This document shows positions 15,139-29,948 of a stretch of DNA of 47,884 nucleotides, piece after piece. Numbering within the stretch: position 1 is the stretch's first letter; each line of letters opens with the position of its first letter. This DNA comes from Escherichia phage ZL19. The stretch lies in the sequence record OM258170; one strand, 5' to 3'. Under the pieces are notes generated by a model, which was not told where the DNA came from, ran no database searches, and saw nothing but the letters and a program-made list of their open reading frames with translations. Both the position numbers and the translations under genes were made by a program.

Positions 15139-15529
15139 ATTATCATTAGCAGCAAGGAAATTCGTCAACGATTTGTTGGTAAATGAATTTCCTGTCAGAT
15201 ATCCAGTTGCTTGGGAGAACGCTGCCTTTGCGCCTCCTGCGGACGGCTCAATCTGGCTTAAGTACGACTACACAGAAGTTGACACAGTAACATACGGGTT
15301 AAGCAGGAAGTGCAAATACTACGTTGGCATGGTGCAGATTTCAGTGTTCTTCAGTCCGGGGACTGGGATTGATAAGCCGAGACAAATAGCTAATCAATTG
15401 GCAGAATCTATCGTTGATGGTACAATGCTTGACAGCGGGACCATTTATGAGTCTGGAGTTGTTAACCCGGTTATCAAATCCAAGTCTGGGTGGTTTATCC
15501 CGGTTCGTTTTTATGTTCGTCTAGACTAA
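15128..15529 (+). CDS. tail completion/terminator protein (putative)
   Basis: 133-aa ORF overlapping upstream gene, precedes major tail gene. Confidence 0.4.
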   Translation: MQYELSLAARKFVNDLLVNEFPVRYPVAWENAAFAPPADGSIWLKYDYTEVDTVTYGLSRKCKYYVGMVQISVFFSPGTGIDKPRQIANQLAESIVDGTMLDSGTIYESGVVNPVIKSKSGWFIPVRFYVRLD

Positions 15530-15544
15530 CAAAAGGAAAAATAC

Positions 15545-16201
15545 ATGGCCCATCTCAGCAATGGCACGCAGGTCTTCGTAGAAGGCTCTCGCGGAGCTGC
15601 AATCGACGTAACTGCAATTTCTAACGCAGTTACCCCTGTTTTAACTGTATCTGACGCGTCTGGTTTGGTCGTTGGTGATTACCTGCTTTTCACCTCTTCT
15701 GCTTCAACGCTTCTAGCTGACAAGCAAGTTCGAGTGACTGCAATCACTGGTACGTCAGTAACTGTTGAAGGTATTGATACCTCCAGCACCACAAAGTTCC
15801 CGGCTGGCTTAACTGGTGAAGTTGTCAAGATCACCTCCTGGTTCGAAGTTCCGTGCGTTCAGGACGTATCTACTGACGGTGGCGAACAGCAATTCGTTAA
15901 CTTCCAGTGCTTGTCCGATGACCGCGAACAGCAGATTCCGACTTATAAATCTGCGGTAACAAACACCTTCACCTTTGCTCACGAGTACACCAACCCGGTC
16001 TATCCGGTTCTGCGTAAATACGATGAGTCTGGCCAGGTTGTCGCGATTCGTCTGTTCGTACCTCGCGCTCAGGAAATGCGTTTGCAGTCCGGCACTATCG
16101 CTTTCAACGACACCCCTACCATTGGTGTTAACGAAATCGAAACGGTATCCATCGCAGTATCAATTCGTGGTCGCCTGTCCTCTGTGGCAGCTGAAGTTTA
16201 A
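15545..16201 (+). CDS. major tail protein
   Basis: 218-aa ORF with AAGGA RBS, followed by strong terminator, upstream of chaperones and tape measure. Confidence 0.6.
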   Translation: MAHLSNGTQVFVEGSRGAAIDVTAISNAVTPVLTVSDASGLVVGDYLLFTSSASTLLADKQVRVTAITGTSVTVEGIDTSSTTKFPAGLTGEVVKITSWFEVPCVQDVSTDGGEQQFVNFQCLSDDREQQIPTYKSAVTNTFTFAHEYTNPVYPVLRKYDESGQVVAIRLFVPRAQEMRLQSGTIAFNDTPTIGVNEIETVSIAVSIRGRLSSVAAEV

Positions 16202-16207
16202 AACACA

Positions 16208-16230
16208 AACCCTCTTCGGAGGGTTTTTTA
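16208..16230 (+). terminator. intrinsic terminator
   Basis: CCCTC-TTCG-GAGGG hairpin plus T6. Confidence 0.7.
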
Positions 16231-16311: not shown

Positions 16312-16560
16312 ATGAATAACGTTAAAAACATCATCAAACTTGCTGCAGTTCTTGTTGCTTTTTATGCAGTAGTTCAGATTGTTAACCCAACTGGTGAGGC
16401 TGATGCCAATAGCAAGGCAAACAAATATACCGTTGAGTTCGCTAAAGCTGAGCGAGCATGTCAGGAGCTTGTGGGTAGTAAAGTTGACCAAATCATGAAA
16501 TATGGCAAAGAGGTCTGCAAGGACTCAGCTGCTAAGATTGCAAAAGAAAACACTAAGTAA
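16312..16560 (+). CDS. small secreted/membrane protein (moron-like)
   Basis: N-terminal hydrophobic segment; own promoter module between major tail and chaperone genes. Confidence 0.45.
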   Translation: MNNVKNIIKLAAVLVAFYAVVQIVNPTGEADANSKANKYTVEFAKAERACQELVGSKVDQIMKYGKEVCKDSAAKIAKENTK

Positions 16561-16599
16561 TAGAATACATACTCACAAACAATAAGAGGATTAACTAAG

Positions 16600-16914
16600 A
16601 TGGCTAAGTTCAAACTTTCACTGGCAGCACTCCCTGACTTCAAGCTTCCGGTAAAATTCAAGCTGGCTAACGACCAGGATGTAGAGGTTATCTTTACAGT
16701 CAAGCATAAGAAAACATCTGAGCTTCAGGAGCTTTTGCAGAAAGAAGACTTGAGTACTAAAGAATTGATTATGGCAATCGCCTCTGATTGGGATTTGGAA
16801 GAAGAATACAACGAGGATAACGTTAATGAGTTCTCCGACCTGTTCCCAGCGTCAACAGTTGCACTGACTACCGCTTACATGCAGGCACTGGCAGGCCAGC
16901 GGGTAAAAAACTAA
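16600..16914 (+). CDS. tail assembly chaperone (lambda G-like)
   Basis: Acidic 104-aa ORF immediately upstream of tape measure; ends at slippery site. Confidence 0.6.
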   Translation: MAKFKLSLAALPDFKLPVKFKLANDQDVEVIFTVKHKKTSELQELLQKEDLSTKELIMAIASDWDLEEEYNEDNVNEFSDLFPASTVALTTAYMQALAGQRVKN

Positions 16915-17234
16915 AGAGGGCGGTGTATCTACAGTACCAGTCAGATCCAACTGATGCCGAACTGGAAGCTATTGGGATGCGCCGCTCTGATTACGAAGAT
17001 GAAGAGCCTGAAGTTTTACACTTCGACGACAACATGATGAAGGCTTGGGACATTTATTGTTCAATGGCCACGCAATGGAGGGTTGGAGCTAACGGAGCTA
17101 CAGGGTTAGATTACAACGTGCTAAATTTCCTCTTTAGAGTGTATAATGTCTCAGAAGAAGAATTGGTGCTCAGTGATTTACGCATCCTTGAAGCTAAGGC
17201 TCTCGAGATGATGGATAATCTGAGAAAAAAATAA
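16600..17234 (+). CDS. tail assembly chaperone, frameshift-extended product (G-T-like)
   Basis: Predicted fusion of ORF 16600..16914 with -1 frame ORF ending 17234. Confidence 0.5.
16905..16911 (+). other. -1 programmed frameshift slippery heptamer A_AAA_AAC
   Basis: Heptamer 4 nt before G-frame stop; -1 frame is open from here through ORF 16923..17234. Confidence 0.6.
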
Positions 17235-17254
17235 CCCGCTTCGGCGGGTTTTCT
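17234..17254 (+). terminator. intrinsic terminator (short T-run)
   Basis: ACCCGC-TTCG-GCGGGT hairpin. Confidence 0.5.
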
Positions 17255-17269
17255 ATTATGGAGGCTTAG

Positions 17270-20245
17270 ATGGCAACAAATGAATTAGCCGGAATCACAC
17301 TAGCCGTAGACGTCTCGCAGGTAGACAGAGGTACACAGTCCCTGCGGAAGTTCAGGCAGGCAAACCAGCAGGCCGCTTCCGGCATTAGTGAGTTCGTCAA
17401 CGCCGAGCAGGTTGCAAAGAATCAAGCCAGAGACACAGCTCGCGCACTGGCTGAACAGCAATCATCTTTGGCTAAATTGCAAACGGCTATTGACCCAACT
17501 GCGGCAAAGTTCCGTAAACTCCAGGAGGCTGCTGTAGGTCTTGATAAGGCTTTCGCGGCTGGAGTAGTTCCTGATGAGGAGTTTTTCCGCTTAGGTGAGG
17601 CGCTTGAAACGCAGAACGCAAAACTTGCTCGTTCACGTGCGGCACTAACTGAAGAGGGTAGAGCGGCGGCGCAAGCTGCAAAGGATAAGGCAAAGGCAAA
17701 GGCTGAAGCGGATAGATTCATTGCATCACTTGAGCGTCAGGCTCAGGCGGCAACATTGACGCGAGAGGAGTACCTAAAGTTACAAGCGGCCCAGCTTGGC
17801 GTAAGTTCTCAGGCGGCGCCTATTATTGACAGAATCGCCGATGTATCACGGAAGGCAAACACCCAGCTAATTGCTCAGAGCAAGGCCTTTCAACGCTCTG
17901 GCTTAAGCGCAGGTCAATACAAGGCTGCAATCTCTCAATTGCCAGCGCAGATTACAGATATTGGGACATCACTTGCTGGCGGCATTCCGATTTGGCTTAT
18001 TGCAATTCAGCAAGGTGGACAAATTAAGGATGCATTTGGAGGTATTGGTAACACATTTAGTTTTGCGCTTGCTGCTTTAAACCCGTTCAACGTAGCAGTT
18101 GGGGTTCTCGGTGGCGCGCTTGTTGCTTTAGGCGTCGGTGCTGCGCAGGCTGAAAGTGAATTCAGGGCGTTAAACTCCGCCATTGCGTTCTCAAACAACT
18201 CCACAATCGCATCAATCTCGCAGGTTAGAGAGTTGGTTAGCTCTGTTTCTGATGCCACTGGTGCAACCAGAGGACTTGTGACTAGCATCGCAACAAGCCT
18301 TGTTGAGCAAGGAAACCTTACGCTAACGCAGATTGACAAGATTACTAAATCAACAGCCAGATGGGCTCAGTTGACAGGTAAGGATGCAAAGGAAATTACT
18401 GGTTACTATAACCAGATTGCGAGCGACCCAATTCAAGGACTTGCTGATTTAGACAAGAGGTTTAACTTCCTTACACAGGGGCAGTTAACAACAATTGAAA
18501 GATTGAGGGAGACTAGGGGTGAGGTTGAAGCCGTAACTGCTGCTATTGATATATTTAGCAAATCACAAGAGGCAAACCTTAACGATATTGCAGCCCAGCT
18601 TACTCCTCTTGAATTGGCCTGGAATGACTTCAGGAAGTACATATCTGATGTATGGGATGCAATTAGTCGCAGAACGGTTGGGGCGCTAAACCTGTTTGTT
18701 GACGTAATCGCCGGAACAATTGAGCAAATTAGGGTCTTCATCAACCAGGGTGATGTGCTGATTGGTGAATTCGTAATTAGCGCAACACAGGCACTGCAGA
18801 ACATCCCCGGCCTTGATGGTGTTGGTGATGATGTTGTCAAGGGACAGCAGAAGATTATCGATGCCGCTAAGAAGCAAAACATTGAGCTAGAGAAGTCTAT
18901 CAAGGAGCGCGATGCCAGAATCAGAGAAGGAGAACTTGGCTACGTTACTCGCAGAGAAAATCAGAATACCAATGAGCAGTCAGGCACGGATGAGGAGTTT
19001 GCAAAAAGGAAGAAAGCGCTTCAGGATGAACTTGATGCGATCAAGAAGAGCAGGAAAGAAGAAAATGGTAGGGTTAAAGAGCAAAGAGACCTTACAATTG
19101 GTTACGAATCTGGCGTACTTGCACTACAGGCACAACTCAAGGTGCTTCAGGAAAACAGGGATATTGGCGCAGTAATAAGCAATGAGCGCAAGCAGTATCT
19201 TCAGGAGGTTGCAAAATTCCAGATTCTTGAGCAAAGGCAGCGTGATGGCTCAATAAAAAAAGAGCAAGCAAGACTTCTCATTGAAAAGGATAAAGTTCTT
19301 GAGTTGGCCAGGCAGAAGGCTGAGCTAGGTGATCAGATTGTTTTGCAAGAAAGAGCCAATAAGTTGGCTGAAGATAACCGCAAGAAGATTCTTCAGATTA
19401 ACAATGAGGCAAGCAATATTGATTTGGGTACTGGATTATCATCTCGTGAACTGCAAAGAGCCAAAGAGATTCAGGCTCTTCAGTCCAATCAGGTCAATGC
19501 TGGTGGCTCTCTTGATGACGTTGATTTTCAGCAGCTACTGGAAGCAAGACGTAACTTTTATGCCCAGGAGGATGCGCTACGTGAAAACTGGCTCGCTGGT
19601 GTGAATCAATCCTTTGCCAATTGGGCTGAGAGCGCGACGGATGCATTCTCAATTGCTGGAAGTTTAACCACAACAGTCTTTGAAGGCATTACCGACCAGA
19701 TTACAAACCTCGTAACAACTGGCGAAACAAACTTCAGAGAGTTTACTGTTAGCATCCTTAAACAGATTGCTAAGATTGCAACCCAACTTCTTATTGTTAA
19801 GGCTATAGAGTCTAGCTTAAGTAGCTTCGGTGGTACTGGTGGCGCTATTGGTTCAATTTCTTCAGGTCTTGGTTTCGCTGGCGGCGGCTACACTGGTAAT
19901 GGCGGGAAATACCAACCAGCAGGTACTGTACATAAGGGTGAGTTTGTATTCACAAAAGAAGCGACTAGCAGAATTGGTGTTAAGAACCTTTACGCACTAA
20001 TGAAGGGATACGCAAACGGTGGCGCTGTAGGTGGTCCATCTGGTTATGCTAATGGTGGCTATGTTTCCGGCGGCTCGGATATTAATGTTAGTGGCATCAC
20101 TGTTAACGTTAATGGTGGCGTTGGTAGCGACCCAGAACAAGCTAAGGCGCTGCAAAGCGGAGTCAGGGCTATCGTAGCAGAGGAGATTGCTCAGTCCTTC
20201 CAGCAGGGCGGAAAAGCTTATCAGTACCTTCGCGGATTCAACTAA
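17270..20245 (+). CDS. tail tape measure protein
   Basis: 991 aa, Ala/Gln-rich coiled-coil with Gly-rich C-terminus, GGAGG RBS. Confidence 0.85.
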
Positions 20246-29158: not shown

Positions 29159-29300
29159 CTTATACCGCCTTGTTTTCGATTTGCATTACGCTATTAACTG
29201 ACATCATAACATTCCGATTCTGCTGCTGAGTAGTGGTTACTACATGCTGCATTTTATTGCAGTCACTTTAAATGACCACATCTTATTGTGGTCATTAGTG

Positions 29301-29948
29301 CTACTTATCTTTAAGTAGCAACTTGATATCAATTCCTAGATTATTCTCAATCAATCCAGTCAGTGCACCTACCTTTTCCTTAAGCGCGAAGCATTGCGAT
29401 TCATACTTAAATCTTTCCTCCATCTCATCAGAACGACTAACCCAACACTGGCGAGCCTCACAAGCCAACATGTCGAGTTTTTCATCGGTATTCTTATCCA
29501 TGAGTAAGATCTCATTTATCCTTTGCTCTGCAACAATGCGCTGACTCAGGTGTGCATTTTGCGCATTAGCCACACCAAGCATCATGCGCGCTTCTTTTAA
29601 CTCATCAATGCTTACCATCTTACTGATTACTTCTTCTTGTTTTTTGACTAACGCCTCAAGTTCATGAAGTCGACGGATAACCCTGTGACGAAGAACGACG
29701 CTATAGCCAGTTATTAGCGTTTCTGTAAGTTCCTTGTTAAGTAAAATCTCTGATGTATAGCCGCGATTGTCCGTAAGTACTTGATAATCATCATGACCCA
29801 AATCTGGGGCATCGTTATAATGTAACAATTCATTGATCATTTCCTTTGTGTCGCGAACGACGTGATCATGACGCTTACCTGTCAATTCAGCAATTTCCTT
29901 CGTGCTCATCATGGTTTTTGGCTGTTCTTTGTACGCCTCAATGTTCAT
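29301..29948 (-). CDS. Rha-family regulatory protein with coiled-coil C-terminus
   Basis: MSTKEIAELTGKRHDHVVRDTKEMI matches Rha pattern; track ORF trimmed to ATG with AAGAGAGA RBS. Confidence 0.55.
   Translation of the reverse strand: MNIEAYKEQPKTMMSTKEIAELTGKRHDHVVRDTKEMINELLHYNDAPDLGHDDYQVLTDNRGYTSEILLNKELTETLITGYSVVLRHRVIRRLHELEALVKKQEEVISKMVSIDELKEARMMLGVANAQNAHLSQRIVAEQRINEILLMDKNTDEKLDMLACEARQCWVSRSDEMEERFKYESQCFALKEKVGALTGLIENNLGIDIKLLLKDK

Follow-up and report, generated by a model that had tools for sequence, protein, structure and literature searches.

How the second of two small, overlapping open reading frames (ORFs) comes to be translated is the question raised by the interval between the tail tube and tape measure genes of Escherichia phage ZL19, which we have examined in a window of 47,884 nucleotides (sequence record OM258170). 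An earlier note on this DNA had proposed that the two frames are joined by a programmed -1 ribosomal frameshift at a heptamer A_AAA_AAC, after the fashion of the conserved G/G-T frameshift of long-tailed phages. Sequence comparison makes it highly probable that a frameshift of the lambda G/G-T type does yield a G-T fusion at this site, and the proposal is now supported by gene order, by Pfam and PHROG family membership, by conservation of the heptamer and its phase, by a conserved L-K-R-A continuation in the -1 frame and by a predicted structure downstream.

The phage is an Rtp-like coliphage of the T1 family (Rtpvirus, Drexlerviridae), and between positions 15500 and 17600 the window is 99.3% identical to Escherichia phage vB_EcoS-IME253 (Drexlerviridae; Braunvirinae; Rtpvirus). 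All of the features concerned lie on the plus strand. The major tail tube protein gene, the counterpart of lambda V, occupies 15545..16201 (Pfam Phage_tail_3, 2.6e-68; phrog_584, major tail protein, 1.6e-87), and the tape measure protein gene, the counterpart of lambda H, occupies 17270..20245 (Pfam TMP_2, 1.1e-48; Tape_meas_lam_C, 3.7e-20; phrog_24, 4.8e-234). Between them are a G-like ORF of 104 aa at 16600..16914, a putative tail assembly (tape-measure) chaperone that matches Phage_TAC_4 over residues 1-104 (3.2e-33) as well as phrog_569 and phrog_17368, and a T-like segment of 107 codons plus stop at 16911..17234, in the -1 frame, that matches DUF1799 (5.5e-16) and positions 109-210 of phrog_17368 (9.7e-43). 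Both halves pass their Pfam gathering thresholds comfortably, G with 115 bits against 21.1 (PF08748) and T with 59 bits against 26 (PF08809). The order is thus tail tube, G, T and tape measure, with the two small ORFs that characterise the lambda-type G/G-T arrangement, and in the annotation of PQ659294 the G-like ORF is named as a tape measure chaperone. G aligns to positions 1-107 of the 213 positions in phrog_17368 and T to positions 109-210; since this one profile covers both halves as a single protein, relatives have already been catalogued as one fused protein. A search of Protein Data Bank sequences with the family profile found no relative.

The surroundings of the gene pair have features of their own. 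Rtp-like phages carry an 82-aa ORF (16312..16560, plus strand; phrog_22925, 1.3e-55) between the tail tube gene and G, where T1-like phages and other relatives have a gap of just about 100 nt. Terminator-like GC hairpins with T-tails flank the unit formed by this small ORF, G and T on the plus strand, one at 16207-16226, just 3' of the tail tube gene, and the other at 17233-17250, between the T stop and the tape measure start; a match to a sigma-70-like promoter (16538-16566, plus strand) lies upstream of G. From their sequences, the flanking hairpins and the promoter-like site might tune the level of chaperone transcripts relative to those of the tape measure.

The 0-frame codons of ORF 16600..16914 around the site read ...CAG CGG GTA AAA AAC TAA AGA GGG CGG TGT... 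on the plus strand. The slippery heptamer A_AAA_AAC occupies 16905..16911 in the X_XXY_YYZ phase of this ORF, exactly where the earlier note had put it; the note had also placed it 4 nt before the stop, and here the sequence corrects it, the actual distance being 0 nt, with the 0-frame stop TAA (16912..16914) abutting the heptamer directly. That the -1 frame is open through 17234 stands as described. Its opening point does not: the frame is open not merely from the heptamer but already from 16830, 75 nt 5' of it, and continues to the stop codon at 17232-17234, overlapping the G frame by 82 nt. A tandem -1 slip at the heptamer would give the coding sequence join(16600..16911,16911..17234), the conceptual translation of which passes through ...QRVKN-LKRAVYLQYQ... 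and amounts to 211 aa and 24.3 kDa, compared with 104 aa and 11.8 kDa for G alone. In the conceptual fusion, trypsin reduces the junction to the tiny peptides VK and NLK, while the junction peptide released by Asp-N is DLFPASTVALTTAYMQALAGQRVKNLKRAVYLQYQS.

AAAAAAC occurs six times on the plus strand of the window, and heptamers of the form X_XXY_YYZ lie in phase within ORFs of at least 80 aa at 32 places on that strand. Only the heptamer at 16905-16911 among these 32 has a -1 frame extending for at least 50 codons beyond the 0-frame stop, the actual run being 106 codons. T itself ends with A_AAA_AAA (17225-17231, plus strand) directly 5' of its TAA; the -1 frame there runs for just 11 codons, and this sequence is probably just the Lys-rich C-terminus of T.

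From this anatomy we infer the following course of events. Most ribosomes translating 16600..16914 would terminate at the TAA at 16912-16914 and release the 104-aa G, while a minority would slip one base back on A_AAA_AAC, the Lys and Asn tRNAs re-pairing from AAA_AAC to AAA_AAA. Slipped ribosomes would next read CTA (16911-16913) and proceed in the -1 frame to 17234, making the 211-aa G-T. A stem-loop at 16917-16988, beginning 5 nt downstream, probably promotes the slip, and the stop codon abutting the site may contribute to it. On the lambda analogy, the tape measure protein would be coated by G and by the G part of G-T, with the T part recruiting the tail tube protein, and tail assembly would depend on a G:G-T ratio set by how often ribosomes shift. 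In E. coli, A_AAA_AAC is far less shift-prone than A_AAA_AAG (PMC5009743), and frameshifting here may consequently be of low efficiency; lambda, for its part, needs just ~1 G-T per 30 G (PMC5009743). A weak site combined with a strong structure would be a reasonable route to a low, fixed ratio.

The gene pair is widely distributed: a tblastn search with the conceptual fusion matched 1135 phage records, and in 1000 of these the match extends over at least 80% of the query. Among the matches listed that cover both halves the match is always split in two pieces, that is, into two frames. We surveyed the junction in 118 loci (a redundant set) from IMG/VR and GenBank phages, which comprise 53 distinct contexts, 50 of them interpretable; the tally leaves out a locus in which the motif pattern had matched another ORF and another in which an A8 run fuses the frames and a second frame break follows. 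A canonical heptamer is present in 41 of the 50 distinct junctions, in Drexlerviridae, Dhillonvirus and one Ralstonia phage. It is A_AAA_AAC followed by TAA or TGA in 40 (Rtp-like, T1-like, Tempevirinae, Dhillonvirus and others) and G_GGA_AAC followed by TGA in one, the Ralstonia phage, at 26% identity; the remaining nine (Webervirus and Rogunavirinae) have a non-canonical A_AAR_GYN followed by TAA. All 50 have their stop, TAA or TGA, directly against the slip position, and the heptamer is found at the same place in phages with just 26-58% protein identity.

It could be argued that the heptamer arises by chance from the Lys-Asn end of G, and that the T frame is a relic, decaying or without function, given that A-runs arise naturally from Lys-rich C-termini and that nine of the 50 junctions have no canonical heptamer. 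Against this, T has a Pfam match, DUF1799, and is preserved in more than 1000 phage records, and its frame is about 101-106 codons long in all of the relatives surveyed. Synonymous codons that would spoil the heptamer, AAG for Lys or AAT for Asn, do not occur once among the 40 distinct A_AAA_AAC junctions, even as the codons next to it vary freely among relatives (CGG, CGA, CGT or CGC; GTA or GCA). All 11 of the distinct Rtp-like sequences have the heptamer unchanged, and among them 52% of the third positions of codons elsewhere in G-T are variable. As far as sequence comparison can decide the matter, conservation effectively refutes coincidence or decay, to which we allow hardly any probability.

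The earlier note had suggested a search for a stimulatory structure downstream, and a candidate was found: a predicted stem-loop of 72 nt and 29 pairs (16917..16988, plus strand), separated from the heptamer by a spacer of 5 nt, which falls in the range of ~5-9 nt expected of stem-loop-stimulated -1 signals of the dnaX or IS-element type. Its 14-bp basal stem is predicted to form between AGGGCGGUGUAUCU (16917-16930) and GGAUGCGCCGCUCU (16975-16988). The 79-nt segment over the stem-loop has a minimum free energy of -32.5 kcal/mol (z -4.0), with none of 200 dinucleotide shuffles as stable, and windows over it rank third to fourth among the 9561 overlapping 79-nt windows of the plus strand, which makes it the third distinct locus; one of the two loci ranked above it is not significant relative to shuffles. 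The most stable 79-nt locus on the strand, at 29240-29330 (-34.2 kcal/mol, z = -6.8), consists of three tandem hairpins in an AT-rich stretch (34% GC) between, and overlapping the end of, two minus-strand ORFs.

When the same peptide was recoded synonymously 1000 times, no version was as stable as the native sequence (mean -17.7, sd 3.6), which indicates that the fold is not a by-product of the protein sequence. It is kept in the 11 distinct Rtp-like sequences, at -31 to -35 kcal/mol. Among these 11, variable columns make up 4 of the 58 paired positions and 125 of 556 elsewhere in G-T (Fisher p = 0.004), while variable third codon positions number 3 of 18 in the paired set and 97 of 186 elsewhere (p = 0.005); the variability minimum of the G/T gene pair coincides with the stem-loop, and there is a second stretch of low variability near 17110-17140. 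The stem arms are nearly invariant among Rtp-like records that are at least 89.8% identical here, and the next relatives, at ~70%, do not form the stem. The stem-loop at 16917-16988 is, on these folding predictions, a plausible frameshift stimulator.

Comparable structures in other lineages take other forms. T1-like and Tempevirinae phages have a compact hairpin of ~30 nt (GGGCGGUUU...AAACCGCC) 6-7 nt downstream, with z of -3 to -5, and Rogunavirinae, which encode nearly the same peptide with non-pairing codons, show no significant downstream fold (z about 0). A downstream structure common to the whole family was considered and rejected, for z falls below -2 at 80 nt in just about half of the junction contexts, in a scan set of 71 contexts that includes a few stray pattern matches elsewhere in some loci. 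Because the significant structures differ between lineages, the stem-loop is a lineage-specific feature and not a family-wide requirement. An Rfam scan of 16500-17400 at E <= 10 gave no match on the stem-loop, frameshift elements included, and its sub-threshold matches lay only around the terminator-like hairpin at 17233-17250. Inspection by eye of the window and its relatives revealed no conserved upstream Shine-Dalgarno (SD)-like stimulator of the dnaX kind, ~10-14 nt 5' of the heptamer.

The same frame change could in principle be made in the transcript, since one A added by RNA polymerase within the A6 run (16905-16910) would put G and T in frame just as a -1 ribosomal slip does. Some relatives have A7 runs (GAAAAAAAC), and in one contig an A8 run fuses G and T in frame. 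However, bacterial polymerases usually slip productively on runs of about 8-9 or more, and A6 is short by this measure. In the Ralstonia relative the site is G_GGA_AAC, with just A3, which fits tandem tRNA slippage and not polymerase slippage, and the site in Rogunavirinae is A_AAG_GUC; as neither offers a homopolymer run, transcriptional slippage is an unlikely source of the fusion. The ZL19 site bears the signature of ribosomal frameshifting, in that the C following the run is conserved, the heptamer is in phase and a stem-loop lies 5 nt downstream, and we regard slippage by the polymerase as exceedingly unlikely.

A further alternative is that T is a separate protein, translated by independent initiation at the GTG at 16923 or by re-initiation after the TAA at 16912-16914, so that no frameshift is needed. 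ORF 16923..17234 does begin at GTG, as the earlier note had said, 9 nt after the stop; it encodes 103 aa, and an SD-like AAGAGG (16914-16919) lies just 5' of the start. G and T stand as two distinct genes in RefSeq and in most GenBank records, and the annotators of phage OzMSK mention an 'independent RBS'. Yet the SD-like core ends just 3 nt 5' of the GTG, and the usual spacing between a Shine-Dalgarno sequence and a start codon is longer than this. The AAGAGG of the window is one way of writing Lys-Arg, and in other Rtp-like phages it is AAACGA; the GTG is replaced in T1-like, Tempevirinae and Rogunavirinae phages by GTT, GTC or GTA, which encode Val and are not start codons. In those genera the -1 frame has its first start codon 50-221 nt beyond the stop of G and within the conserved domain. 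With the GTG a non-start codon in other genera and the SD-like element variable, independent initiation is not a conserved feature, and in the window both elements would also be held within the basal stem of the -32.5 kcal/mol fold.

The codons that precede the GTG also bear on this choice. Directly 3' of the site the -1 frame reads L-K-R-A-V-Y-L nearly everywhere, with the Arg written as AGG, CGA, CGG or CGC, and an alignment of eight divergent relatives has a gap-free junction at which L105 and A108 of the fusion are invariant. This pattern of substitution shows selection at the protein level on the stretch of -1 frame that separates the heptamer from the GTG. Such selection on the four codons before the GTG (L-K-R-A) would be unexplained if they were untranslated; they come after the 0-frame stop and before any start codon, and their maintenance is explained only by ribosomes entering the frame at the heptamer. 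At 30% identity, the Dhillonvirus KarlBarth has a -1 frame that becomes open precisely at the heptamer, and no start codon appears in it until 221 nt beyond the G stop. Separate translation of T in place of frameshifting is, on this evidence, very unlikely, though a little free T could be made by termination-reinitiation in Rtp-like phages. What the phage actually makes is most likely a 104-aa G and a 211-aa G-T, with the T start at GTG an artefact of annotation.

Frameshifting at this junction has well-studied parallels, beginning with the G and G-T chaperones of lambda (Levin 1993; Xu, Hendrix and Duda 2004, 2013, 2014; summarised in PMC5009743). In both systems two overlapping ORFs lie between the major tail and tape measure genes, the second being in the -1 frame and without a conserved initiation site; the first carries a canonical X_XXY_YYZ heptamer close to its 3' end, and there are a short and a long product (predicted, in the present case). 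They differ in the site itself, G_GGA_AAG 15 nt before the G stop in lambda and A_AAA_AAC flush with the stop in ZL19; in the protein families, Phage_TAC_2 and Phage_tail_T in one and Phage_TAC_4 and DUF1799 in the other; in the length of the fusion, which is 279 aa for lambda G-T and 211 aa here; and in the long stem-loop that follows the ZL19 site. When the family profile was aligned with lambda G-T in hhalign, the probability was 0.4% (E 0.17), and sequence homology to gpG/gpT was not detected. A local resemblance to lambda (WR...G[LI][DT]Y.VL..[LF]F) was noticed and set aside as weak and without statistical support. Lacking detectable similarity to the lambda pair, the ZL19 genes are best regarded as its positional and functional analogue in a different chaperone family; the definition of a lambda-type G/G-T frameshift given by Xu et al. 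(2004), which goes by position and recoding, reportedly does not require sequence homology to lambda gpG/gpT. That definition also calls for a short product and a fusion made at a fixed low ratio, each necessary for tails to assemble and neither present in virions.

Closer parallels are found within the family, where the frameshift is already recognised, both as a joined coding sequence in OzMSK and in genome papers on T1-like phages. OzMSK (vB_ecoS_OzMSK, PQ659294) is 95.1% identical over the region with an identical junction, and its 'frameshifted' tape-measure chaperone is annotated as a joined CDS at homologous coordinates. In T1 gp40/gp39 and in its T1-like relatives Stevie, U136B and Skenny, A_AAA_AAC is likewise followed by TAA and the -1 frame continues as LKRAVYL, and the genome announcements of these three relatives state that the frameshift is conserved; T1-like and Tempevirinae phages differ in that the ~30-nt hairpin replaces the 72-nt Rtp-type stem-loop and in having no GTG at the Val codon. 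The E. coli dnaX site resembles that of ZL19 in its A-rich, Lys-type heptamer, its spacer of 5-6 nt and its stable stem-loop (see also PMC5009743), but has the far more slippery A_AAA_AAG and an SD-like stimulator upstream, of which ZL19 has no conserved equivalent. Finally, Rogue1 and JK06 (Rogunavirinae) have homologous genes of the Phage_TAC_4/DUF1799 type in the same arrangement, but GCA_AAG_GUC_UAA in place of a canonical heptamer and no significant downstream fold, where ZL19 has both; a G-T-type fusion has been proposed for these phages and the non-canonical case discussed (Kropinski 2012, PMC3496638). Our literature searches turned up no protein, genetic or reporter data on the T1/Rtp-type G-T frameshift, the support for which is all comparative.

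At eight surveyed loci in Rogunavirinae the conserved position is occupied by GCA_AAG_GUC_UAA and at 25 loci in Webervirus by GCA_AAA_GUU/GUC/GCC_UAA, the canonical heptamer being absent from both; T is nevertheless still in the -1 frame in each group, with LKRAVYL or LRRAVYL right after the site. Given nine junctions of 50 with no canonical heptamer, and Rogunavirinae with no significant fold, neither element is universally required in the family. A tentative reading, to which we would give somewhat less than an even chance, is that recoding in the Phage_TAC_4/DUF1799 family has its own distinct architecture, made up of a stop-flush slip site, RNA stimulators that are lineage-specific and interchangeable, and replacement of the heptamer in whole genera. 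A slip site that is always flush with the 0-frame stop would, on such a reading, suggest slippage coupled to termination. The stimulators would be the 72-nt stem-loop in Rtp-like phages and the ~30-nt hairpin in T1-like phages, with none detectable in Rogunavirinae, and A_AAR_GYN with T in the -1 frame would imply that a P-site slip of a single tRNA-Lys, or an undescribed mechanism, suffices. If this architecture is real, the Rtp-type stem-loop at 16917-16988 would be a genuine and previously undescribed stimulator.

Measured against what the family's annotators have already recognised, our additions are modest: the Rtp-specific stem-loop, the family-wide placement of the slip site flush with the stop and the lineages that do without a canonical heptamer. 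The main value of the analysis lies in correct annotation, because the closest RefSeq record, that of IME253 (NC_047810.1), and most relatives list G and T as separate genes. In NC_047810.1 and other RefSeq records both are named 'tail length tape measure protein', a name that appears to carry over a PHROG label and not to describe a chaperone role. Lambda cannot build tails of correct length without the G:G-T ratio that its frameshift sets, and the heptamer and stem-loop should for this reason be kept when phages of the T1/Rtp type are engineered or prepared for therapy, for instance during codon optimisation. The family also offers natural variants in both slip site and stimulator, which can be compared by reporter assay.

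A few records in the survey are anomalous in ways that concern the records themselves. Phage 2725-N35 (MN840485.1, locus ~2906) has A5 in place of the A6 slip run, which lengthens the annotated G ORF to 117 aa and leaves T in the wrong relative frame; this is probably a homopolymer sequencing error. The contig with the A8 run (IMGVR_UViG_2619619144_000009, locus ~1120), the closest relatives of which have A7, carries G and T in one frame and has its second frame break later in T, and represents either a degraded prophage or sequencing errors. Two records labelled with other hosts, Campylobacter phage A110b (MG065688.1) and Pseudomonas phage PsgS01F (PP134917.1), are 91-94% identical to the Rtp-like region, and their host labels are doubtful, possibly reflecting contamination or misassignment.
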